64,000 nt of DNA from a virus (taxonomy: Duplodnaviria; Caudoviricetes). Of this stretch, positions 3,001 to 49,595 are shown piece after piece. The stretch is taken from IMG/VR virus record IMGVR_UViG_3300033073_000738, positions 57,015 through 121,014 of that record. The stretch is one strand, 5' to 3'. A model generated the notes under the pieces. That model saw only the letters and a program-made list of their open reading frames with translations. It had not been told where the DNA came from and ran no database searches. Made by a program: the position numbers and the translations under genes. Every line of letters begins with the position of its first letter. Position 1 is the stretch's first letter.

Positions 3001-5511
3001 AGATATTTGACCAGGTTCTATTTTTGTAGAAAGCTCTGCCCTCCATTTAGTTAATAGTTCCTGACGTTTCTTGTAGCTCTTGAGTTGATCACGCTGTTCA
3101 GGCGAGAGAACATCAGCACTACTCAACATTCTAATATTATCCTTAATGAGATTGAGCTCTCTCACTACAAACTCATCGTTTGTAAGAGTGTAGAAAGCAG
3201 GGTAAGACTGTGCACCTAAGTTCTCCTGGTTCTTAGAAAGAATATCCTTATAACGAGTGACAATGTCTTTGTGTGTATCCCGCATGAACACATAGTCTTC
3301 AAGAGCTTTGTTCCATGACAGATAACCAAACTCAGCTTTAATTCTCTCGTTAGTACCCTCTTTATATTGCTTGTAGTTATAAGGGTTGGGCATTCTACGA
3401 GATACATCATCTAGCTCCTTTACAAAATCTTTAGCTTTTGTTTTAAGAGAAGATACATAGTCAGCTGAAGCTTTTCTACCTAAACTATCTGCCTCAAATC
3501 CGTATGCTTCTTTAAACTCTTCATCAGTGAGATCTTTAGAAGACTGTTCCAACATGTCTAACATTGCATCAAGCTTACCGGCTTTATGTGCAGTCATGAC
3601 AAACTCTTGGAAAGCTTTGCGTTCAAGATTCTTAAAAGCATATGGATTACGTTCCATAGCTGCTCTCTTGAAACCTTCTGCTATCTCATTCTGATTTACG
3701 TATCCTTCAAGATTCCTATTGAATACTTGCATAGGACTATTAGCCCACTTGTTCAAAGAGTTAACAGTCTCCTGTAGCTTTTGCTCACGAGCTGCGTATT
3801 CTTTAGAATATATCTTTCTTTGGGCTAACCCAATACCTCTGTTCATCACTACAGAAGGAACACCAATGATAAATCCAGAAACGAATGTATCTAATCCTTC
3901 TAGACTCATTTGCTTACCCAAAGCTTTGCTCATAGCTTTACGGGATATACCCATCAAGTGACCCCAGTCATTACGAGCTTCTTCTGTAAGTGTAGCTTTC
4001 TGTTCGTAATAGCTTTGCCAATAGTCATGAGAAATACCCTGGGCATTTTCTTGAATACCCTCCCATGCAGAGTCTGCACCCCAACGGAACATATTGTTAC
4101 CCTTGCCTTTGAACCATTCTGCAGAAAACATCTTTACTTCAGATGCTTTCATAAATGGATCTTTGACCATTTTACTTCCGGCTTGTGCAGCCATTTTCTC
4201 TGTTTCTTTAGCAGCTTTCTTTTTAAAATACTTTGTCAACAGACTTTCTCCTGAAGACTTAGCAGAACGCATTATGATGTCATCTGCAATTGTACCTGCC
4301 TCTGCAGCTATTGCTTTAGACAGACCAAACCCGGAACGCAAAACGTTCCCCATGTTCAAACGATTCATTGCCAATAGAAGAGCAACGTTTGTAATACCGT
4401 TTGCATTGGAAACTTTCAGAGCATCTTCTTCTACAGCTTTACGCTCATCATCGTTCATATCTCTACCGTACTTCTCAAAGAACTCAAGCTCTTTGCCTTC
4501 TACATAGTCGGCATAACTTTGGGCACGTTCAAAACGAGCTTCAGATGCAGCAAAGTTGTATTCTTTAGTAGCCTTATAGAAATTGCCAAATGCTTTAATA
4601 GGACTTGTCTTACGCAGGTCGTTAAAAGTGTTGAACATCTTGGCAATCTTACTACTATCCAAATAAGCATTCTCAAACTTCATGATGTTCTTGAACGCTT
4701 TGTTCATTGTATACAGCTTCTCTAACGTGCCGGCAGTCTTTACAGCGCGTCGTGTGAGATTACCTATCTCTGCAAGAATAGATCCACCTACAGTACCTGG
4801 TGCTGTCAGTGCAGTGACTGCAGTCTCAAGAGCTGTTTGCTCTAAGAACTGAGCAGTTGTACCCAGGGTAAAACCAAATTGTTGTAAACCTCTAGAGAAC
4901 TTACCCATGTTAAAAGACCCCTCACGTTGCTCTTGAGTAAGAGGAACATAGTGGCTATTATTCACCTCATTAGATAACTCATTGAGTTTCAATAAGTCAT
5001 CTTTATCCATGGTGAGTGATAGAGCTTTATTAAGATCACCTTGTACTAACCCGGCCCACATATCAGCTTCTGACTTCCAGGCTTCGTTGTGTGCTATACC
5101 AGCTAGAGGGAGAATACCTTTTATACCTTGCCACAATTGACCAGACTTACCCAGTTCACGGGCATAGAGATCCTCGTTATCCCTATAAGGAATAAAACCT
5201 TCTGTTCTATACAGTGTGTCTTTGAAACTGTTATAGAGAGGGTCGAAGCCCGACTCTCTTGCATTAAACTTAATAGGAGTAAAAGCTTGTACTTCAGCTC
5301 GATTAGTAGGCACTTTAGAAAGCTGTCCCCTGATATAACTATCATAGTTAAAACTTCCACCTCCAGTTGCATTACCTGTTAGACCTGAAGAATAGCTGTT
5401 GAAGTCCACCTGAGGCATAGGCTCAGCTGGTATATAAGAAGGTAGCTGTTCAGGTGTCTGTATTTCCCCAGGTGCGTAAACGTTTTCTTGGGTGAGAATA
5501 GGGTCGGCCAT
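1..5511 (-). CDS. Giant virion/ejection (cargo) protein, N-terminal ~1837 codons, truncated by the window edge; position typical of crAss-like giant virion proteins that often include the virion RNA polymerase
   Basis: ATG at 5511 (MADPILTQEN...). No stop in the segments I translated (1-120, 1381-1440, 1621-2460); the ORF track lists nothing in this frame, consistent with no stop before the edge. Follows three large ejection genes. No RNAP DxDxD motif seen in the translated parts. Confidence 0.8.
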   Translation of the reverse strand, partial: MADPILTQENVYAPGEIQTPEQLPSYIPAEPMPQVDFNSYSSGLTGNATGGGSFNYDSYIRGQLSKVPTNRAEVQAFTPIKFNARESGFDPLYNSFKDTLYRTEGFIPYRDNEDLYARELGKSGQLWQGIKGILPLAGIAHNEAWKSEADMWAGLVQGDLNKALSLTMDKDDLLKLNELSNEVNNSHYVPLTQEQREGSFNMGKFSRGLQQFGFTLGTTAQFLEQTALETAVTALTAPGTVGGSILAEIGNLTRRAVKTAGTLEKLYTMNKAFKNIMKFENAYLDSSKIAKMFNTFNDLRKTSPIKAFGNFYKATKEYNFAASEARFERAQSYADYVEGKELEFFEKYGRDMNDDERKAVEEDALKVSNANGITNVALLLAMNRLNMGNVLRSGFGLSKAIAAEAGTIADDIIMRSAKSSGESLLTKYFKKKAAKETEKMAAQAGSKMVKDPFMKASEVKMFSAEWFKGKGNNMFRWGADSAWEGIQENAQGISHDYWQSYYEQKATLTEEARNDWGHLMGISRKAMSKALGKQMSLEGLDTFVSGFIIGVPSVVMNRGIGLAQRKIYSKEYAAREQKLQETVNSLNKWANSPMQVFNRNLEGYVNQNEIAEGFKRAAMERNPYAFKNLERKAFQEFVMTAHKAGKLDAMLDMLEQSSKDLTDEEFKEAYGFEADSLGRKASADYVSSLKTKAKDFVKELDDVSRRMPNPYNYKQYKEGTNERIKAEFGYLSWNKALEDYVFMRDTHKDIVTRYKDILSKNQENLGAQSYPAFYTLTNDEFVVRELNLIKDNIRMLSSADVLSPEQRDQLKSYKKRQELLTKWRAELSTKIEPGQISAPATPSKVFVDYLNMFQEQALLPPLEADKLRDAFNDLSDLYRLDKDQRTTIKNLNYLADPENFLNLHLEHSKLMGEAYQKLLKHREEKNSNYDKLWPLILNDIDFRFKHSALIKELEDASVAQDTDLIYNILDQLYEAEFGEPVVGKEEEEKTEEKTEETTEKNDEEEQPTSSSIINENDPAFKAEIEKRRKLTGWSASYELAAIAKKEGVDLSKLSREEYADYAIKNYLKIDDSQLRANVKHRNATSVQEITEMMKADRASLSEESKKAFDSFYNAMMSIVDKPQVERYLAKNVRLLSGTKDSNSWLFFSINNGTNDNDSVTHKSYFSLKDLNDFSPEVLKEFMVKLQERGYNGGVKIFQDLEAQGPALSDQVVMHGYTEADAKLALEVAKEFYGDKLLDSSIGKDEVINGKNKSYSQILADKIKNEIDAKLAAFDGKQSTATTPLSDIERRRSLIRAALQKAVNPIIVLIDGSKTTTRIETLMSNEVLTPEGYVSIDIIKQVISQDEVKEYGTGKILAKKGEVLYDAELADLDGKQPGSSPGGNQRGQSGGGSKVNFFQSILKDIADGVPQSDIEKKLEEGILSGQIDDKQADEIVNKLTERNKKNQQGGNESKPLSETSREFVNQYNDLISEMNALLSSPDATRKAVEALWLKMQLLINQLEPGVQSKYKVPLKEKLSKAVKELERREISKDAKKIKLFIDSVFNKPNLLITDAVEKIFEVLDMELDPSFKDEVIAYFESAYRKAIDKRVDELKKRMTSVAGSGSPLLDQYIKDRERYIEIIKTRLENFKQKAADLNSLRGEFVLATEIKRDFSTTVNKRNRKVPIDVDATFGQSEAIDNMIASGTIGDDDLKKYSRNQLSTASELINLGVSRIFALQINKAAEKYVKNPRDKANEKELQELILNLYEDSNEGGKSSDVYKVAEEKVRDVLADKSINTVDDILNEFGFNKTIEISDEQYSKYKEFRKQINSNMSDANTLNIIQSIEERKQNAITNGI

Positions 5512-5520
5512 GAAATTAAA

Positions 5521-8500
5521 TTAGTTGATGTTAATACCTTGCTTTTTCAGCTGTTCCTTCATACGTACTATAGAAGTCATAGCTTCTGGGTTAGCCTGTA
5601 CGTTAGCTTTGCGAGTCTGCTGATTCATCTCACTTACATGATATAGACTTCCATACATTACACGTAAGAGCTCATCTACATCTGTGCTTTCATCATGGTT
5701 TGTAATAGTAGTCGGTGTCTTTACAAACTCTTTAGTTTTAGGATCAAGTGTATAAACATAACTGGACACCTGGAATCCACCACCAGCAGGTAAGTGTTTA
5801 ATACTGAACTTACCCATCTTTAAATTATCCAAATAGTCAGGGCTCGAATAAGGAGCATCTCTAACCAATGTAGCAATAGGACTAAGTCCTGTAAAAATAT
5901 CACCAGGCTGCATACCAGGAGGTGCAGCCACTTTAAAAGTCTTCATGAATTTATCTACTGCAGCGTTCATATCTACATCTTCGTTAAGCTTGTCCAAACT
6001 TAAACCAAGAGATTCAGCAATAGTCTTTTTGTCAATAACAGGTTTATAAACAGGTCTACCGGCTTCTGTGTCGTAAGCATAAACGTCCAATGAGAAACCA
6101 TCTTTCTTTGAAGACATGTTAGGAAGATTACTTGCAACAGAACGCACAACTTTCATGAAACTACTGTCTTCTTTTAGATCAGCTTGACTGACTCCATAGA
6201 ATGAATTGTATCTGTTATTAAAATTGTCATCGCTAAACAACTGTGCCATAGCTACCTCAGCAGGTTCTGACAGACTTTTCTCGTTTCTTGCTGTATACCT
6301 TACAACACCATAGTTGAACATGTCATTTTTACGTTGAAAGTCAGGTGTGCTAAACTGCAAAGAAGGAGCCAGTCGTTCAAAGTCTTTATTATAATCTGCT
6401 CTCAATTCCTCAAGCTTTTGAAGCATTGGTTGGTTAATCATCTGACTCACCTCATTAACCTTACCATCTTTCAAACTAGTCATTAGGTTTGGTGAAGAAG
6501 AAAGGTGATTATATATCTTACCGTTTATATTGATTGTACTTGTGTATGTTCTTCCTGTTGTTCCAGAACCCAGAACATAAACACCATTATCTGACTCAGT
6601 ATTGATAGACCTTCTATTAAGAAGAATGTCAGAAACTTTTACGTTCTCCATTTGTCCATCTTGATTCCTCATAGGGATAGTAATTTCCCCCACTAACTCA
6701 TCTGCAGTGCCGATACGCAAATGACCATTTTCATTTACAGTATACCCTTTATACTTGTCCTGAGCTAAGATCTTCTCATCTACTTTTTTGGCATCAGCTT
6801 GCAGACCTCTGTATATATCGCCCATTGCGATTAGATTCTTAATATCTTCTGTCATACCACCCATGGCTTGTACATCAGCTTTATGCTCCTCAGTGGCCAT
6901 GTAGTCAACAGTATTCTTCTTAATAAAATCCAATACTTCTTTGTATGTCCAGTTATAGGTTCTACCTGGTTCCAGTTTTAACTGACCCTTATCAATAGCA
7001 TCCTTAAATATCTTATACTCCGGTGACTGATCATTCTTAGAAAAAAATGCTTTATCACCCATACCAGCTTTTACACCTTCATATAACTTATTTACAAAAG
7101 GAAGATTTATCTTGTTATTCAAAGTAGTTTCAAATACACGTATTGCTGCATCCCCTGCTATCTCATCTACTTTCTGATACATGTTTTTCCACTCTTCAGC
7201 TTTGGTCATCTTCATATTACTTTGAGGACCTCTGCCCATATAAAGAGGCGTGTCATCAACAGCTTCCCCTTTTGCTATTGCAGCTTTGCGAGCAGCTGTA
7301 CGAGCTTTTAAGTCAGCTATCTCCATTTTAGTATCGTTGTTCATATCAGCAACTTCCATACGAGCTTGAATACCCATACGAGCTGTCATTACATCCTGGA
7401 TACCTTTCCAAGCTGCATCTGCTTCTGACTTATGACTGTTCAAGAAGTTAGCCCTACTCTTAGCCCAACTACTTGCATATTGACCTACAATGGTGCTAGT
7501 ATAAGCTTCGTTGTACCCCTCAGATGTAGAATACAAATCAGAGTGTTTTTGATATACCTCTGAGTTCTTATCTTTCAAACCGGCTAATAGATCTGAGCTC
7601 TCCTTAAGTTTTGTCTTATAGCCAGCAATAGCTTCTGTATACTGTTTGATAATCTCTTCGTCATCAGCACTTAGACCCGCGCCGGTTGCTTCACGTTGAG
7701 CAACTATTGTACGTATCTTGGATTCAGCATCACCAATTGCAGAAGAGTATTCAGGTATTACTCCTTTCTCAAGAGACTCTTTTCTCTGCCTGATGATATC
7801 ATCGGCAACCATTTGTCTAGCTGCTGCTTTATCTCCGTTTGTTTGCTCTAAAGCTATTTCAAAAGAAGAGTGACCTTGTAATCTACCCATCATTTGTAGA
7901 TAAGCCCTGGCATCTGTACTAAGAGAACTTGTAAAGAAGTCAGTAAGAGGTAGTACACTTTCTTTGCCGTACATGTCTACCAGCTTATAACCACCGCCAT
8001 TGGGACTTTCTCTAACTTGTGCATTGGTAATACCCAGGTCTTTGATCATCTGGTCCATTTCCTTTGCTATATCAACCTTCTTTACATAGTTTCTGACATT
8101 CAATTTATCCAGCTCCTCGGGTGTGGAATTCTTGATATCACTGTTAAGATTGTTCAAATCCTGTATAGAAAATGGATTGTATTGTGCCCTCACCTTTTCG
8201 TCAGTGGAAGTACGCATCTGTTCACCAAATGCAATCTCACTTTGAGTCTTCTTTACAAGACCTATTTCTTTTACAAGACGTCCATCTTCCCAAAAGGGTT
8301 TGAAGACGTCATTTGCCATCTGTTGATTCTGAGGAAGAGATAAGTCTACAGTGGATAGATGTTGAATAGCCTGGTCAGCTTGTTTTAAAAACTGTTGACG
8401 TTTAGCCTCTCCATGACTAGAAAGCAATGGAGCATCAAGAATTCCACGATACATGGAATTAGCTTGACTCCAAGCTTGGTCATACCTGTTTTGCTTTAAA

Positions 8501-43886: not shown

Positions 43887-44900
43887 TCAGACATTCCAGT
43901 ATTTTTCTACCTTTTTAGTAAGATTCATAAGAATTTCCTCGTTCAAAGGATTCTTCAAAAACTCTGCTACATCTGCTGATGTTCGTCCCATCATTGTGCT
44001 TGTTTCCATATGGTATACAAAACCGTCAGCTTTACTTGCTATAAACTTGTAATAGGTAGAATCTTTTACAATCGTTCTGATTTTCAAAGTCTCCATATCC
44101 AAAGACACAGCATCTAAGAAACGTTCAGCTGTGCGTCGTTTATCTTTTTCAATCAGATCTCCGTTGATGTATTTGTCCATGTTGTCATAGATAATATCAT
44201 TAGGAGTTGACTTTTTGTATTGAGCTGAGTTTGGATCCAGAATCTTAGCCACATAGAACAGCTTGTTCTGATTCTTATCAAACAGTTTCTGAAGCTCAGC
44301 CAGGGCTTTGTTACGAAGTTTCTTAACCTCTGTCTGAATTGATGCTGTTTCTTCAAGCCTATCTAGATAAAACTTAGGTACAATAGGTGACTTTCTTGCT
44401 TCATCCAAACTCTTAGCGACCATTGAAAACCCACCTGCTTCAATCGCATACATCCTTATAAGATCGTATGGGTCTTTATCAGGCTCCAAAAACACAGGCT
44501 CATTACCGCATCGTATCTTGATTTTATCCCAAAACTCGAAATTGTCAGCTTTGAGCAACTTTACCTTGTTCCAGAAATCTTTATCATTTGGGTCAATCAC
44601 ATTTGCAGCTAGTTCTTTTTCTAATTGACAAACAACTTGGCGAATCTGTTTGATTTTAGCTTCTTGTTCATCAGGAGAAAGCAACTTCACTTCTGGTGCA
44701 AACTCATTTAAACCGGTTATGTAACGTTTGATTCCATTGATTTCTAAACAAGCAAGTTGTTCTTCATGAAAAGCTCCATCAAAAAGACTCAATCCATATT
44801 TCTGCAAACCCATGTTTTCCAAAATAGGATCAAAATAAGGACGAATAGCAATTGTGGACCTTTTGTTTTGAGGATACTTTTCTACAATAGTTACACTCAT
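43887..44900 (-). CDS. Conserved crAss-like protein (gene 75-like)
   Basis: RYITGLNE, FWDKIKI, FLKNPLNEEIL motifs; position downstream of MCP. Confidence 0.7.
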   Translation of the reverse strand: MSVTIVEKYPQNKRSTIAIRPYFDPILENMGLQKYGLSLFDGAFHEEQLACLEINGIKRYITGLNEFAPEVKLLSPDEQEAKIKQIRQVVCQLEKELAANVIDPNDKDFWNKVKLLKADNFEFWDKIKIRCGNEPVFLEPDKDPYDLIRMYAIEAGGFSMVAKSLDEARKSPIVPKFYLDRLEETASIQTEVKKLRNKALAELQKLFDKNQNKLFYVAKILDPNSAQYKKSTPNDIIYDNMDKYINGDLIEKDKRRTAERFLDAVSLDMETLKIRTIVKDSTYYKFIASKADGFVYHMETSTMMGRTSADVAEFLKNPLNEEILMNLTKKVEKYWNV

Positions 44901-44954
44901 CTTTTGGTTTTTTTGGTTTTATTATAACAATGTCTAAATACTAGACAGATCTTT

Positions 44955-47762
44955 TTATGCTTGAGCTTCAGTCCAAGAAATACGACCAAATACTCCTGCA
45001 CCATTGCTAATCAAAGCTGTAACTACAACTGTAATTACATCTGGACCATCAGGATATATTTGTGAGTTAACAGCAGTACTACCACCTCCAAGAATTGAAT
45101 TACTCAAATCTCTAACTTTTGTTAAATCATAAGAACTTACACCGTATGTAGTAGTACTAGATGAGTTTACATAAAAACCGTACACCACTTCACCACCGCT
45201 TACTGTCCTTGATGCTCCATGTACACATATTTGAGCAAGGGAAGAACCACCTACGTTAACCCATGGATCAGCTGCACTCACTGTACCATTAATTACTAAT
45301 TGTATCAAATAGTTACCTGCAGCATATATTCCAATACTTTGAAGAGAAAGCTGCATTCTATTGATTAACTCTTTAACTCCAAAAGCATTTGCACTACCGT
45401 TATCTACAGAAGGTGCTAACCTAATAGACATTAGAGCAAATCGCTGAAGTGCAGTACTTACCAGTAATGCAGTTGTTGTACCTGATGTAAATATAAATTG
45501 TTTATCATCATCAAAACGTCCATCCATAATTACTGAGCTACCCCAGTGTGATATAATAGGAGCAAATGTGGGTGCTAATGATTCAACTGATGTAGGAGCT
45601 GTAGCTGAATAAGTAAATGTTTGACCAGTAGTACCAGTACCCATTGGAGGAAATATCACACCTGTTGGGTTAAGTGTAGTACTTGCACTGCTAAATGTTA
45701 CAGTATTTGCAGAAACCGACGCGATATAAGTACCATCAGGAAAAGAGGAAGATATTACACGCATACCTGCTTGTAAATTTGTTGCAGATGCAACTGTACC
45801 TACATTAGATCCTATTGCAATAGTAACTGCAATACCTGATGCTTCACCAGCTTTTGAATGTGTACATCCTGTAAATGATGTACTAGTTTTACCAGTGTAA
45901 TTTATATAGTCATATGTACCAGCACTATTTCTTAATAAGATTGCTCCGCTATTAGCAAATCCTAAAGTACTAACTACGTTTATAGTAGCATCTGCTGGAT
46001 TTACAGTAGCTGTTGTAGTTGTTACATAAGGAAATGTACTAGTTTCATAACGTGCTGGAATATTTCCAGTACGCATATATGCTTCATAGTTTACATTATT
46101 ATTAGCAATTTTATGAACATAAGTGATAACACCATTAGTTCCTCTTAATCCCCATCGTATAGCACCTGCTCCATACCAAGAGTAATCAATAAAGAACATT
46201 TGCATTTTGGTAAGATCCACAGTAAATCCTGAAGGACCTGTACCATCCATTTTATCTACGTTCCAACTAGATTGTGGTATTTTAGTATCCACTGTTTTTG
46301 TAATTACAGCGGAAGCTGGTGCAGCAATACTAGGGCCTCTATAAGAAGGATTGATGGTCATAGAGGTATCAGAAGCAATAGAATGCACTCTGTAAGAAGC
46401 TCCTTTGATTACAATATAATCACCAACACTCAATTGTTTAGAAAATACTGTATTAATACCAGTTACAGCATTGCTACCGTTTGTTACAGTAGCTGTACCT
46501 GCAATTTGGTAAGTGGAAGCTCTTCTTACAACATAAAGAGTAGTTCCGTCAAACTCAAAAAACAGACCGTTTTGATCGTCAAACAAGCCAAGCTTTACAG
46601 AGCCACCGGACCAGCTATTAACTGATACGTTATATGTACCACTAGCTGTTGTTACACCAGGAGCTCCTAAAGCAGTATAAGTAAATGATGTAGGAGATAC
46701 GACGTTTGTTACAGTAAATGTACCATTGTAAGCTCCTTCATTGCAACCATTCACTATTATAGTAGCTCCAACTTGTAAGTTATGTGCCTCCTTGGTATTT
46801 ACAGTGATTGTGGTACCAGAAGCTGTAATCAGATCGGGTGTAAAAGAAGGTTTCATTATAGAACCCGTAGAAAACTGGATTCCTTTACCCGACTGATACC
46901 TGAAATACTTTCTGGTCTGACGGATCAGTTGTTCGTATTTAGATTGAGCATTAGAAGAGAATTTAACACCTCCATCGTAAGCTCTATGTAATGCACTACC
47001 TTGAGGACGATTGTATATCAATCCACCTGTAGGAGCAGCTGCAGGAGCAGTCAAACAGTAATATTCAAATACTGTATCACTTACTATACGTGCTACACAC
47101 CAACTACCATTTGCATTAGCTTGTGATGTATTTGTTACACTAATTTCATTTCCAATAGCTAGACCATGCGGAACTGTAGTTGTTACACGGATGAGTGTAC
47201 CAGCAGTCCATGTAAATGTTGGTGCACCACCTATAGCAGCACCGGTATAAATAAATCCTTGATAAAGATTGGTCACACCAGCGTTTAGAATTGATCCTGT
47301 GGTTGGAGCCGGATATTGTGCAGTATAAGTGAAAGTAGTTCCTGTTGCATTTGCAATAAACAATCCATTAGCTCCCATAAAGGTTGCATCCTGAATATAT
47401 ACAGGTGTACCAGCTGTTATAGAAGTTCCTGTTGTAATACTTATAACTCTAGATCCAGCTGTACTACTAATTGCAGTGACAGCAATAGGAGTTTGTATGT
47501 TGTAATAAGCAAAAGGACGATTATTAGTCATATTCAATGTCTCCCACTTAGTAGGTTGTGTACCATACTCAAAGTCGGTATCAATCAATGCTTGTGGAGA
47601 TGAAATCCTCATTTTTTGAACGGGATCTGTATACTCTTCAGCTGTCTGTATATTAACAGGCAAAGAATTATACTTAGACAAACCCACTCCGTTTAAAGTA
47701 ACATCTTTAAAAGTAGAAGAGGTATACGTTCTTATAATGATATCATCAGATTGTTGAGACAT
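44955..47762 (-). CDS. Large beta-rich virion protein, candidate head fibre/decoration
   Basis: 935 aa; DPVQKMRISSPQALIDTDFEYG, repeated T...H(G/N)L..G..I.V...NG modules, IDYSWYGAGAIRWG; A/T-ending codon bias. Confidence 0.6.
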   Translation of the reverse strand: MSQQSDDIIIRTYTSSTFKDVTLNGVGLSKYNSLPVNIQTAEEYTDPVQKMRISSPQALIDTDFEYGTQPTKWETLNMTNNRPFAYYNIQTPIAVTAISSTAGSRVISITTGTSITAGTPVYIQDATFMGANGLFIANATGTTFTYTAQYPAPTTGSILNAGVTNLYQGFIYTGAAIGGAPTFTWTAGTLIRVTTTVPHGLAIGNEISVTNTSQANANGSWCVARIVSDTVFEYYCLTAPAAAPTGGLIYNRPQGSALHRAYDGGVKFSSNAQSKYEQLIRQTRKYFRYQSGKGIQFSTGSIMKPSFTPDLITASGTTITVNTKEAHNLQVGATIIVNGCNEGAYNGTFTVTNVVSPTSFTYTALGAPGVTTASGTYNVSVNSWSGGSVKLGLFDDQNGLFFEFDGTTLYVVRRASTYQIAGTATVTNGSNAVTGINTVFSKQLSVGDYIVIKGASYRVHSIASDTSMTINPSYRGPSIAAPASAVITKTVDTKIPQSSWNVDKMDGTGPSGFTVDLTKMQMFFIDYSWYGAGAIRWGLRGTNGVITYVHKIANNNVNYEAYMRTGNIPARYETSTFPYVTTTTATVNPADATINVVSTLGFANSGAILLRNSAGTYDYINYTGKTSTSFTGCTHSKAGEASGIAVTIAIGSNVGTVASATNLQAGMRVISSSFPDGTYIASVSANTVTFSSASTTLNPTGVIFPPMGTGTTGQTFTYSATAPTSVESLAPTFAPIISHWGSSVIMDGRFDDDKQFIFTSGTTTALLVSTALQRFALMSIRLAPSVDNGSANAFGVKELINRMQLSLQSIGIYAAGNYLIQLVINGTVSAADPWVNVGGSSLAQICVHGASRTVSGGEVVYGFYVNSSSTTTYGVSSYDLTKVRDLSNSILGGGSTAVNSQIYPDGPDVITVVVTALISNGAGVFGRISWTEAQA

Positions 47763-47781
47763 AGTTGTATTATAAATTTGA

Positions 47782-47837
47782 ACCTGTTAAGAGCTGCAAG
47801 CTCCCTAGATGATCAGTCTAGTATGCGTACAACAGGT
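47782..47837 (-). ncRNA. Mini tRNA-like three-way-junction RNA lacking a D-arm
   Basis: CCUGUUG/UAACAGG stem, 8-nt linker, CUAGA-CUGAUCA-UCUAG arm, GGAGC-UUGCA-GCUCU arm. Confidence 0.5.
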
Positions 47838-47850
47838 AGAGGGTAAAAAG

Positions 47851-47909
47851 ACTTAGACTAGTGAGGGTGTTTTATCCAACTAAGTTGGTAGCTGCTATCC
47901 TTTCTAAGT
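47851..47909 (-). ncRNA. Candidate structured RNA
   Basis: ACUUAGA/UCUAAGU closing stem enclosing a CCAAC-UUA-GUUGG hairpin. Confidence 0.35.
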
Positions 47910-47935
47910 ACTGTTACTGTATACATATACCAGAG

Positions 47936-47959
47936 CCCCAGGGATTTTAACCCCTGGGG
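47936..47959 (-). terminator. GC-rich hairpin just after the MCP stop (attenuator or mRNA stabiliser; no U tract)
   Basis: CCCCAGGG/CCCTGGGG inverted repeat. Confidence 0.55.
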
Positions 47960-47972
47960 ATGATATTATATA

Positions 47973-49595
47973 TTAGAATGAACCACCAGTCACAGGGTTC
48001 CTCATGACAATCTTCAATACCTTGGTGGGGTCTTTAACCCAGATAGCCGGCATTGTTTGAGTCATGTAAACTCGGTAACCGTTGAAGTTTCCAGAAGACT
48101 GGAATCCTTGGGTACGACCCATGTAGTCCATAGTACCGTTTTGGTAGAACCACTTAAGTTGATTGTCCCAAGAAAGCTTCAGCAAGAAGATATTATCGTT
48201 AGTGTTATCGGTAATATCAAAGATGATGAAGTTGTAAGAAGACAGAGGGAAACCATCAATGATGGGGTTCTCAATGTCATTGGTGTGAATGTTGTCAAAC
48301 GCAGGGTTAAGAACAAACTGAACATTAGCCAAGAAAGGAATAATGTACTGAGTGTAAGCATAACCAAAGTTGAGGTCCATACCTTTACCACTGATAGCTC
48401 CAAGCTCGTGAGCGTTGAGAACCAAACCAGAGTTTACAGCCTCTTTCTTAATTGCTTCATTCACCAGTTTCATACCGCCCATACCGGTTTGTACAACCAG
48501 CTTGCGCTTGGGATCAGGTCCTTGAAACTCCACCTTACCGTTGAAGAAGTTGAAGATCTCAGATTTGAACAGATCCAGGTTGAAACTAGACTTATTGTAA
48601 ATACGTTTAAAGGAGTTATCAAGCTGTTTCCACAGACCTACAGACAAACGAATGTCATCAGGACCGTCTTGCTTAATCTTACCACCTTGTCCCCACATGA
48701 GATAGTTCTCAATGTCGTTTGCAATCTTGGTAAGGTGAGCAGCTTCCAAAGTAGTAAGGAAAGAACGAGTAAGCTGACCAGACTGATAAGCTTTCTTTAC
48801 ATAGTCCTTACCCATTTTAGCAGCCATAGTTTCCAGACTAGTAACAGAAGGATCGTCGTTAGCTCCAAAATTCCTCCAAAGCTCAATTACAGGTACACTA
48901 CCATCAGCTTTCATACCACCCTTCATCATCAGGTCAGCACGAGAAGAGATAGAATAATGTACGTGAGCTTCAGCACCACCTACGTAGTTGTAGAATTCAC
49001 GGAAACCAGAAGACACGTTACCGATGTCAGAGAAACGCTCTCCGTATTCTCCACGGGCAGAACCTTTACGGAAGTACTTAGTACCAGCACGAAGAAAGTT
49101 CTTGTTAATAGCAGTACCGTTAGAGTTATTTACCAGCTGTACGGTGTAGATAAAACCATCACCTGCGGGAATAATCTCATCCATAGGAGAAACATACAAT
49201 TCAACACCGTTATATTTGTCATAAGTGATGATATCACCATGTCCAAAAAAACGTTTGTTGAATTTTACCCTGAATTGAGAACCATCAATACCTCTGGTAT
49301 CACTGGTAGGTTCAAGGTCTTCAACAATGTAAGGGAGATCTTGAGCAACTGGGATTTGCCATTTGTACTCTCCACGAGCATTGTCTACAGAAATAACGTT
49401 TTTACCACCGAAACTGGACATTTGGTACAGGGGCATTTCTACCTTCTGTGCCATAGCCCACAGATCAACTGGACCGAGGTCAGTTGGTTCTGCTGATTTA
49501 AGCAGGTTAGAAAGGTGGTAAGAATCTACGTGTGAACTAGTTGTATAGTTTGTATCCCGTAGAAAGATACCATTGTTTAAAACTGGTGTTGGCAT
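47973..49595 (-). CDS. Major capsid protein
   Basis: 540 aa; directly after the scaffold-like gene; YLMWGQGG, GLWKQL, MPAIWVKDPTK motifs of crAss-like MCP; strongly biased codons. Confidence 0.9.
   Translation of the reverse strand: MPTPVLNNGIFLRDTNYTTSSHVDSYHLSNLLKSAEPTDLGPVDLWAMAQKVEMPLYQMSSFGGKNVISVDNARGEYKWQIPVAQDLPYIVEDLEPTSDTRGIDGSQFRVKFNKRFFGHGDIITYDKYNGVELYVSPMDEIIPAGDGFIYTVQLVNNSNGTAINKNFLRAGTKYFRKGSARGEYGERFSDIGNVSSGFREFYNYVGGAEAHVHYSISSRADLMMKGGMKADGSVPVIELWRNFGANDDPSVTSLETMAAKMGKDYVKKAYQSGQLTRSFLTTLEAAHLTKIANDIENYLMWGQGGKIKQDGPDDIRLSVGLWKQLDNSFKRIYNKSSFNLDLFKSEIFNFFNGKVEFQGPDPKRKLVVQTGMGGMKLVNEAIKKEAVNSGLVLNAHELGAISGKGMDLNFGYAYTQYIIPFLANVQFVLNPAFDNIHTNDIENPIIDGFPLSSYNFIIFDITDNTNDNIFLLKLSWDNQLKWFYQNGTMDYMGRTQGFQSSGNFNGYRVYMTQTMPAIWVKDPTKVLKIVMRNPVTGGSF

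Follow-up and report, generated by a model that had tools for sequence, protein, structure and literature searches.

The spacer that follows the major capsid gene in a clade of uncultured freshwater crAss-like phages carries a small element that, by comparative sequence analysis, belongs to a conserved, pseudoknotted RNA family that is phage-specific and holds a fixed position in the late operon. The element was found in a window of 64,000 nucleotides (the whole stretch of DNA analysed here), which is part of a 121-kb IMG/VR phage record. Its four helices, including the pseudoknot, all show compensatory changes among homologues and make up a well-supported RNA fold that appears to be new. The proportions and polarity of the predicted fold are those of the upper half of a tRNA (the acceptor and T-arm), of which the element is a mimic rather than a tRNA itself. 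We count more than 100 distinct homologues, on more than 150 phage or metagenome contigs, that preserve the structure.

Results

Genomic setting of the element

All of the large open reading frames (ORFs) of the window are on the minus strand, as are all of the features described below, for which window coordinates are given. The major capsid protein gene (47973..49595) was recognised by Pfam PF23898 Crass_capsid (E = 1.5e-31) and by PHROG 11589, major head protein, and upstream of it are a 409-aa ORF and a 916-aa portal gene. The element (47778..47837) was delimited as a 60-nt match to a covariance model and sits in the 210-nt spacer that separates the capsid gene from a 935-aa virion structural gene (44955..47762; PHROG 5838, E = 1e-288). 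The ATG of the 935-aa gene lies 15 nt past the model match and 17 nt past the conserved C of the element's tail. This gene is a lineage-specific insertion, and in most relatives its slot is empty or occupied by other ORFs.

The syntenic anchor on the downstream side is p339, a 337-aa gene in the window (43887..44900) that encodes 337-339 aa in the family. It has a hairpin of its own (44931-44947) and an A/C-rich leader, both of which stay with p339 where ORFs have been inserted. No Pfam or PHROG family was found for p339, and the only match among PDB sequences was at chance level (E = 0.34, FEN1 region). The AlphaFold model of p339 is good only for residues 190-337. Foldseek returned nothing at E ≤ 0.001, the best match being a 60-residue resemblance to the RecA C-terminal domain. 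Taken over Pfam, PHROG, PDB and Foldseek, these searches found no recognisable RNA-binding fold in p339.

Anatomy of the element

The element opens with the 5' strand of an acceptor-like outer helix, P1 (A1-U7, 47831..47837), which pairs with A50-U56 (47782..47788). A joiner (G8-C17, 47821..47830) follows, three nucleotides of which, G12-C13-A14 (47824-47826), form the 5' strand of the pseudoknot. Next comes an anticodon-like side arm, P2 (47805..47821), with a stem of 4-5 bp and the loop CUGAUCA, which contains the palindrome UGAUCA (47810-47815). The cap hairpin, P3 (47789..47805), has a 5-bp stem (G33-G37 with C45-U49) and a 7-nt loop, CUUGCAG (47794-47800), inside which U40-G41-C42 (47796-47798) supply the 3' strand of the pseudoknot. 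The 3' strand of P3 abuts that of P1 with zero nucleotides between them, and the element ends in a single-stranded tail, U-C-A-A (47778..47781), for which the family consensus is U-C-W-A. The strand order is P1-5', PK-5', P2 hairpin, P3-5', PK-3', P3-3', P1-3'.

Because P1 and P3 share an unbroken 3' strand, they form a single stack of 12 bp (7 + 5) capped by the 7-nt loop. The total of 12 bp is preserved in lineage L045 although the junction is shifted there (6+6), and lineage L058, which has no joiner, retains the 12 bp as a simple hairpin that still carries the 7-nt loop and the UCUA tail. The P3 loop consensus, Y-U-NGC-A-R, is a U-turn signature resembling that of an anticodon loop. Across the family the length of the element ranges from 47 to 61 nt, and about ten letters of its junction and loop are near-invariant. 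U9 and A10 of the joiner are invariant in the 38-sequence alignment (A1); U9 is missing in L003, L045 and L020. In the tail, U is found in 78% of sequences, C in 94%, U or A at the third place in 94% and the final A in 86%, and a G at position -2, which could pair with the tail C, occurs in only 1 of 107 sequences. The sequence upstream of the element is unconstrained and the sequence 3' of the tail is A-rich. The strong conservation of the joiner (U9, A10) and of the loops could equally reflect a protein partner or catalysis.

Comparative evidence for the fold

The minimum free energy structure given by RNAfold was the same three-helix fold for the element alone and within the 251-nt spacer. 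For one sequence, a fold this stable is within the range of chance (z = -1.89; 10 of 200 shuffles do as well), and our certainty about the fold comes from the comparative data, not from single-sequence energy. Working only from an alignment of 38 homologues, RNAalifold returned three helices: an outer one of 7 bp, a side arm of 4 bp and a cap helix of 5 bp whose loop has 7 nt. Compensatory changes were present in 14 of the 16 pairs of that structure. When the structure with the pseudoknot was applied to 64 distinct homologues, 96.1% of pair cells were paired, compared with 32-43% when the partners were slid, and double changes were seen in 18 of 19 pairs. None of 500 shuffles reached any of the pairing measures for these 64 sequences, among which there are compensatory changes in all seven P1 pairs and covariation in all four P2 stem pairs and all five P3 pairs.

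The element had first been described, from the letters of the window alone, as a D-armless mini-tRNA-like RNA, and every part listed in that description was found on the minus strand (47837-47779): the helix CCUGUUG/UAACAGG, an 8-nt joiner, the stem CUAGA/UCUAG around CUGAUCA, the stem GGAGC/GCUCU around UUGCA, and UUCA. The conservation and covariation in relatives by which that description was to be judged are both present, and its three helices are real. Two points of the drawing did not stand, as the pseudoknot had been overlooked and the register at the junction was one pair off. Covariation sets P1 at A1-U56 to U7-A50 and P3 at G33-U49 to G37-C45, and in the earlier register 90% of cells are paired. 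The junction pair (columns 46-62 of alignment A2) is GC in 28 sequences, AU in 24, GU in 10 and unpaired in none. Within helices there are about 23 G-U cells compared to 2 A-C cells, plus 7 A-C at one register-shifted pair. Since G-U cells far outnumber A-C cells, the gene-sense RNA is the strand that folds.

The pseudoknot

The pseudoknot pairs the joiner triplet GCN with N'GC, the middle three letters of the cap loop, and holds the cap closed. Its pairs were counted as GC 61 and CG 61 and, at the variable position, as AU 47, GC 9, CG 4 and UG 1. The middle pair is also altered in L036, where GUA faces UAC, and in L061, L003 and L045 the partners are ACG and CGU. In a blind test, IMG/VR elements were selected by the loop letter alone and the joiner letter was then read. 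The complementary joiner letter was found in 52 of 52 distinct sequences (A in 37 of 37 with UGC loops, G in 10 of 10 with CGC and C in 5 of 5 with GGC). The anticodon-like triplet of P3 (UGC, CGC, GGC, UAC or CGU) varies in step with its joiner partner.

The side arm and its palindromic loop

P2 is optional. It is absent in L032, L047, L049, L059, L060, L062 and L072 and in L056 and L239 all that stands in its place is a hairpin with a UUCG or UUUA tetraloop. Counted together, the lineages in which the arm is missing or a tetraloop number at least ten. Where the loop has 6 nt or more, it always holds a palindrome of 4-6 nt despite changes in its sequence. The great majority of sequences have the loop N-UGAUCA. 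The GAUC core is preserved in the variants UGAUCG, AGAUCA and CGAUCA, and more than 50 distinct sequences share it despite variation in the loop letters on either side. Four independent replacements of the P2 loop, UGGCCA (L007), GUUAAC (L040), GUAC (L036) and GGCC (L044), are palindromes as well.

Because the loop changes yet stays palindromic, the property that is conserved is self-complementarity. The original prediction had read the arm as an Ile anticodon (GAU) and had offered, as one function, a decoy against anticodon nucleases; neither idea suits an arm that is dispensable and whose loop is conserved as a palindrome only. Its suggestion of kissing dimers fared better, as the palindrome persists through changes among GAUC, GGCC, UUAA and GUAC, and a self-complementary loop that is maintained through sequence change is the behaviour looked for in a kissing loop. 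No second copy of the loop hexamer that might serve as a partner in cis was found near the element. By nearest-neighbour energy, a dimer (-46.2 kcal/mol) would be favoured by about 12 kcal/mol over two monomers (2 x -16.9 kcal/mol). We infer from the loop and from this calculation that the RNA may dimerise through P2.

The dimerisation site (DIS) of HIV-1 is a kissing loop of this kind. Like the DIS, the element has a hairpin loop of 7-9 nt with a 4-6-nt palindrome and unpaired flanking letters, and its palindrome is preserved through double substitutions (GAUC to GGCC, GUAC or UUAA). Unlike the DIS, the element lies in the late transcript of a dsDNA phage, its arm is dispensable in some lineages and its dimer is a prediction.

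Relation to tRNA and to known RNA classes

The D-stemless tRNA-like layout of the original prediction was upheld in its general outline: a stack of 7 + 5 bp, a 7-nt loop, a joiner that pairs with the loop and an N-C-N-A tail. As in a tRNA minihelix, the 7-bp helix sits on a 5-bp helix with a 7-nt loop, and the 3' strand is continuous while the 5' strand is broken after base pair 7; covariation supports this stack, and the plain 12-bp hairpin of L058 displays it in isolation. The joiner pairs with the cap loop as the D-loop of a tRNA does with the T-loop, the optional arm stands at the place of the anticodon arm, and the N-C-N-A tail is single-stranded.

The differences from tRNA are equally clear. 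The elbow of the element is a 3-bp Watson-Crick pseudoknot; there is no D-stem, variable loop, encoded CCA or T-loop consensus, and the element is detected neither by a tRNA scanner nor by an Rfam model. The loop that had been called T-like reads Y-U-N-G-C-A-R and not U-U-C-R-A, the T-loop consensus; it carries a U-turn signature instead and is occupied by the pseudoknot. No conserved anticodon arm presents an anticodon, and where a tRNA has its discriminator and CCA, the tail is U-C-W-A with only one C conserved.

That tRNA scanners would miss the element had been foreseen. ARAGORN finds 0 genes in the window, and with standard and relaxed thresholds it reports nothing on the sense strand. 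In metazoan-mitochondrial mode its calls were on the complement strand only, with 5 calls in 300 nt when loosened. The Rfam search that the original prediction had suggested produced no match: cmscan with Rfam 15 gave no hit at gathering score in the window and none at E ≤ 10 on the element (47700-48000). The ribozymes of Rfam (twister, pistol, hatchet, hammerhead and others), its riboswitches and its small RNAs gave no match to the element.

Several known classes were considered and rejected. HDV-like ribozymes have a nested double pseudoknot, with P1 crossing P2, and a catalytic C in J4/2 before the 3'-most strand. In the element there are zero nucleotides between P3-3' and P1-3', there is no J4/2 site for a catalytic C and there is no Rfam match, which excludes an HDV-like or theta topology; the twister and pistol topologies differ from it in strand order. 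The prohead RNA of phi29 is about 120-170 nt long, has two mutually complementary loops and is encoded near the genome end. The element has no Rfam match to RNAs of this type, measures 47-61 nt, has one self-complementary loop and lies in the middle of the late operon of a crAss-like phage. The Mu-gpT-DE RNA motif of Rfam, found downstream of Mu-like major head genes, is likewise a conserved structured RNA just after a capsid gene, but its model does not match the element, and both the phage group and the fold are different. The element is similar in size to the HDV-like and theta ribozymes (Kienbeck et al. 2024, PMC10879173) and shares with them a pseudoknotted fold; its strand topology differs from those of HDV, twister, pistol and hammerhead, and some of its members have no joiner.

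Distribution

For comparison, 80 IMG/VR loci were used whose capsid proteins are 79-91% identical. BLAST among these relatives picked out the element as a discrete conserved block with the same ends as had been drawn originally, and a covariance model (R1) was built from 38 distinct copies. The model scores the element at 80 bits (E = 9e-20), which is its sole significant match in the 121-kb genome, so that this genome holds one copy only. Around 58 of the 80 capsid-related loci have one copy, located 3' of the capsid gene and on the same strand.

The search was widened with a degenerate DNA pattern. In IMG/VR, 70 of 78 pattern matches passed the model, and in metagenome contigs the same pattern gave 80 matches, 25 of which passed. 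Among 185,000 bacterial genomes there were 92 pattern matches, 80 of which were scored and 1 passed. This lone match is on a 5-kb contig in a 'Micavibrio' metagenome-assembled genome (MAG) recovered from a lake time series; the contig is most likely phage DNA binned in error. The 70 model-confirmed phage contigs have a same-strand capsid gene upstream in all 68 cases in which the contig reaches that far, and same-strand p339 downstream in all 66 that extend to it. A second capsid query, used for a wider search, returned mostly the same contigs again. The sequence occurs in sequencing runs from freshwater or aquatic sources, the best of which are freshwater DNA runs; four runs labelled as RNA consist of contigs and are probably DNA. 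On the evidence of these searches, the element is confined to one clade of freshwater crAss-like phages and occurs as one copy per genome.

A DNA search of a phage collection with the capsid region gave no match. By protein, the nearest cultured relative is Leptolyngbya phage Lbo-JY46 (capsid 29% identity), in which the capsid spacer is 64 nt and the element was not found. Our literature search found no description of the motif. Candidate structured RNAs from IMG/VR are the subject of PMC10690425, the main text of which does not describe the motif; that study drew on the same data source for objects of the same kind, and the family may be among its 8,495 unnamed DNA-virus candidates.

Structured modules and transcription of the capsid spacer

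The element shares its spacer with other structured modules. In the window, a post-capsid hairpin, T1 (CCCCAGGGG / CCCUGGGG; 47936..47959), is followed by no U-tract, and a second structured RNA module, M2 (about 47851..47909), lies just upstream of the element. For M2, RNAalifold on 13 distinct sequences gave 15 pairs, 8 of them with compensatory changes. In the family, the spacer runs from the capsid stop codon through T1, optional ORFs that are small or homing-endonuclease-like, optional M2, an optional hairpin H3, the element (E), optional inserted ORFs and a hairpin, H5, to the A/C-rich leader and the ATG of p339. H3, which has a conserved GAUAGUAUC apex, is absent from the window, and as a repeated promoter or terminator motif the apex sequence is not enriched in the window (16 matches vs 17 expected).

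In a sister clade (about 80% capsid identity) that does not have the element, a canonical terminator is followed directly by the leader, and in L058 the position of the post-capsid hairpin is taken directly by the element. At least 6 T in the 10 nt after the post-capsid hairpin were found at 20 of 21 loci without the element compared to 7 of 34 with it (raw locus counts, kinship ignored). Rfam gave nothing on 20 loci without the element, and scans for sigma-70 promoters and terminators around the element gave nothing above shuffles. The element itself was rejected as an intrinsic terminator: its U-C-W-A tail is followed by A-rich sequence and not by a U-tract, and the terminator scan finds none.

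The loss of most U-tracts in the element clade suggests that late transcription probably continues across the spacer. In the window and in L025, L037, L038 and L042, 11-17 nt separate the element from the next ATG; a promoter would not fit there, and the element must be inside the downstream message in those lineages. Together, the U-tract contrast and the close start codons indicate that the element is transcribed within the late polycistronic RNA. Over the whole family, the next start codon is anywhere between 11 and more than 1000 nt away, and lineages differ in the gene that follows. As ORFs can be inserted on either side, the element is strictly neither the 3' end of the capsid message nor one 5' UTR.

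Discussion

A proposed boundary mark in the late message

We consider the most likely function of the element to be the marking or protection of a boundary in the late message. Our fuller interpretation is tentative: the element may serve, between cistrons of the late transcript, as a mark for processing and stability that RNase P possibly cuts and that is able to dimerise. A processing signal was among the three functions first put forward for this RNA, the others being the decoy and a packaging-RNA-like element, and it is the one that we favour. RNase P is known to cut at tRNA-like signals in MALAT1 (mascRNA), in the tRNA-like domain of tmRNA, in the C4 RNA precursor of phages P1 and P7 and in the tRNA punctuation of mitochondrial transcripts. 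Like these, the element lies between functional units within a longer transcript.

The events might run as follows. With the post-capsid hairpin mostly without a U-tract in the element clade, transcription would read through the spacer, and the element would act in cis as an intercistronic mark. The joiner-loop pseudoknot would take the place of the D-loop/T-loop elbow, and the N-C-N-A tail that of NCCA. The shape would be recognised by one of the host's tRNA-processing enzymes, RNase P being the most plausible candidate, and the cut would fall at the 5' edge of P1. Cleavage there would leave the capsid message with the upstream hairpins (M2, H3) at its 3' end, and the downstream message would begin at or close to the compact knot, which would protect its 5' end. 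As an accessory, when the late RNA is abundant, the palindromic P2 loops of two copies might kiss or extend into a duplex and add stability.

In our estimate the most specific version is doubtful, namely that host RNase P takes the element for the top half of a tRNA and cleaves it at the 5' edge of P1. Recognition by RNase P would be a guess from geometry, as the cap loop departs from the T-loop consensus and the tail offers a single C in place of CCA. The element is also dispensable, as the sister phages manage with a terminator and a leader, which speaks against the reading we favour.

Alternative explanations

Among the alternatives, the one that survives best is an operator, at which a phage or host protein would tune translation or decay of the following gene, as in the control exerted by T4 gene 32, by RegA and by coat proteins of the MS2 type. 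Loop and joiner letters are conserved beyond what pairing needs, the element is often 11-60 nt before a start codon, and a palindromic loop could suit a dimeric protein. We nevertheless regard an operator as unlikely, given that the start codon can be more than 1000 nt away and belongs to different genes in different lineages, that neither the start codon nor the leader is ever part of the fold, and that p339 has no recognisable RNA-binding fold.

Somewhat lower in our ranking, and also unlikely, is a free-standing small RNA, or part of one, that acts in trans, possibly as a dimer, whether as an anti-defence decoy, a regulator of host RNA or a cofactor of assembly or packaging like the pRNA of phi29. 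With ORFs inserted on either side of it, the element behaves like a module of its own; it travels with M2 and H3, and its loop is self-complementary. Yet no promoter and terminator bracket it, its tail is no terminator, and in several lineages an ATG follows within 11-17 nt. It has no similarity to pRNA or to an Rfam small RNA, and sister phages with the same virion genes dispense with it.

A new small self-cleaving ribozyme, which would cut the late transcript without protein, either in the joiner or at or beside the element's 5' edge, seems to us improbable. A compact pseudoknotted fold of 47-61 nt with about ten near-invariant letters and unconstrained upstream sequence would be in keeping with one. 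Against it, no known ribozyme model matches, the strand order is unlike that of HDV-like, twister or pistol ribozymes, and the joiner is not conserved throughout: L003, L045 and L020 have lost U9, and L058 retains helix, loop and tail with no joiner at all, which argues that the joiner is a brace rather than an active site.

We are just as sceptical of a signal at the level of transcription, either an RNA that confers resistance to terminators (like put of HK022) or an attenuator after the capsid gene. The position, after the most highly expressed gene, is a classic one for attenuation, the element clade has lost the U-tract terminator and in L058 the element stands in place of the post-capsid hairpin; however, no U-tract follows the element, there is no consistent downstream terminator to suppress, and neither the pseudoknot nor the palindromic loop would play a role in such a signal.

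That the element works as a mini-tRNA, or as a decoy that soaks up anticodon nucleases of the host, is very improbable. The overall layout like that of a tRNA without a D-arm and the anticodon-loop signature of the P3 loop would suit it, but ARAGORN finds nothing on the sense strand, Rfam has no tRNA or tRNA-like match at E ≤ 10 and there is no encoded CCA. The arm that would carry the anticodon is lost or a UUCG or UUUA hairpin in many lineages, with a loop that is otherwise always a palindrome, and the alternative triplet, in P3, is buried in the pseudoknot and co-varies with its partner.

Finally, a feature of the DNA (a palindromic protein-binding site, a restriction or methylation site or a cruciform) or a chance fold can be all but dismissed, for even though P2 is near-palindromic as DNA and the loop cores GATC, GGCC, TTAA and GTAC are common restriction or methylation sites, the palindrome is broken by one to three unpaired letters in most sequences, G-U pairs are tolerated on the gene strand only, compensatory changes fall in four separate helices including the non-palindromic pseudoknot, and 79 of 80 bacterial pattern matches fail the model that 70 of 78 phage-contig matches pass.

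Implications

If the boundary mark that we favour is correct, the element would be, to our knowledge, the first case in a dsDNA phage of a minimal imitation of the top of a tRNA, without an anticodon, that punctuates a late polycistronic message. Its nearest parallels would then be mitochondrial tRNA punctuation and the cut that separates MALAT1 from mascRNA, and it would show how little of a tRNA a processing enzyme requires. The natural deletion variants, without the side arm or without the joiner, make the family easy to test. The conserved self-complementary loop raises the possibility, rarely documented, of RNA-RNA dimerisation in a phage message. More broadly, the capsid-gene spacer of these uncultured freshwater crAss-like phages emerges as a stack of undescribed RNA modules (M2, H3, E and H5).

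Structured modules surrounding the element

The conserved pseudoknotted RNA element that follows the Crass-type capsid gene is accompanied by further structured RNAs. A second conserved structured RNA, M2 (window 47851-47909, minus strand), precedes the element by about 14 nt and occurs in a subset only of the element-bearing spacers. M2 consists of three stacked stems with large internal loops, and both the architecture and the sequences of the internal loops (GGAUAGCAGCYACC, GGMUAAAACACCC and CACUAG) are conserved. Compensatory changes were seen at 8 of the 15 pairs among 13 distinct sequences. M2 had no match in Rfam.

A smaller hairpin, H3, is missing from the window; it was found in many relatives, 8-12 nt upstream of the element (locus L001, about 4757-4775; L023, about 4683-4699; also L021, L049, L067 and others). 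The arms of H3 covary. Its conserved apex, GAUAGUAUC, contains TAGTAT, which is similar to a -10 box and stops 9 nt short of the element. A C-rich tract (CCCYC) is present 5' of H3, or else directly 5' of the element.

The post-capsid hairpin T1, located at 47936-47959 on the minus strand of the window and at the equivalent position in L001-L164, differed between the two clades. In the sister clade without the element, T1 was a canonical U-tract terminator at 20 of 21 loci, whereas the hairpin of the element-bearing clade was longer and irregular, with a U-tract at 7 of 34 loci.

A variant form of the element

In three loci (L027, about 5959-6010; L030, 4765-4812; L004, 4767-4820) the joiner of the element is enclosed by a 3-bp hairpin, the GUA loop of which pairs with UAC of the cap loop. 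This loop-loop contact is even closer to the kiss between the D-loop and T-loop of tRNA.

Insertions in the capsid spacer

The capsid spacer is a hot spot for insertion. Inserts were located at 4701-5660 in L027/L028, at about 4752 in L057 and between T1 and M2 in L002, L005, L010 and L054. Some of the spacer ORFs contain repeated helix-turn-helix-like segments and look like free-standing homing endonucleases; others encode a predicted membrane peptide of about 63 aa or a tiny Lys/Gly-rich product. Despite ORF insertions before it, the conserved 337-339-aa gene always retained a TATAAT-like box, its own upstream hairpin H5, the arms of which covary, and a leader that is rich in A and C and lacks a Shine-Dalgarno sequence (AAAACCAAAAAAACCAAA). 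This region occupies window 44901-44954 (minus strand) and the same place in relatives.

Genomic context

The sole "bacterial" genome with the element was a Micavibrio MAG of a lake time series, in which the element lies on a contig of 5148 bp (JBIICJ010000153.1). This contig most likely derives from one of the element-bearing phages and was mis-binned.

ARAGORN called one odd "tRNA-???", its anticodon given as two letters (at), close to the left end of the 121-kb phage record (G000:C1:682-751) and outside the window. Across the whole record AGCT was over-represented (878 observed, 424 expected) and GATC showed a mild deficit only (319 against 424). Other short palindromes were strongly depleted, namely GCGC (24 observed, 167 expected), CGCG (19 against 167), GGCC (46 against 167) and TCGA (112 against 424), a pattern that suggests restriction avoidance.
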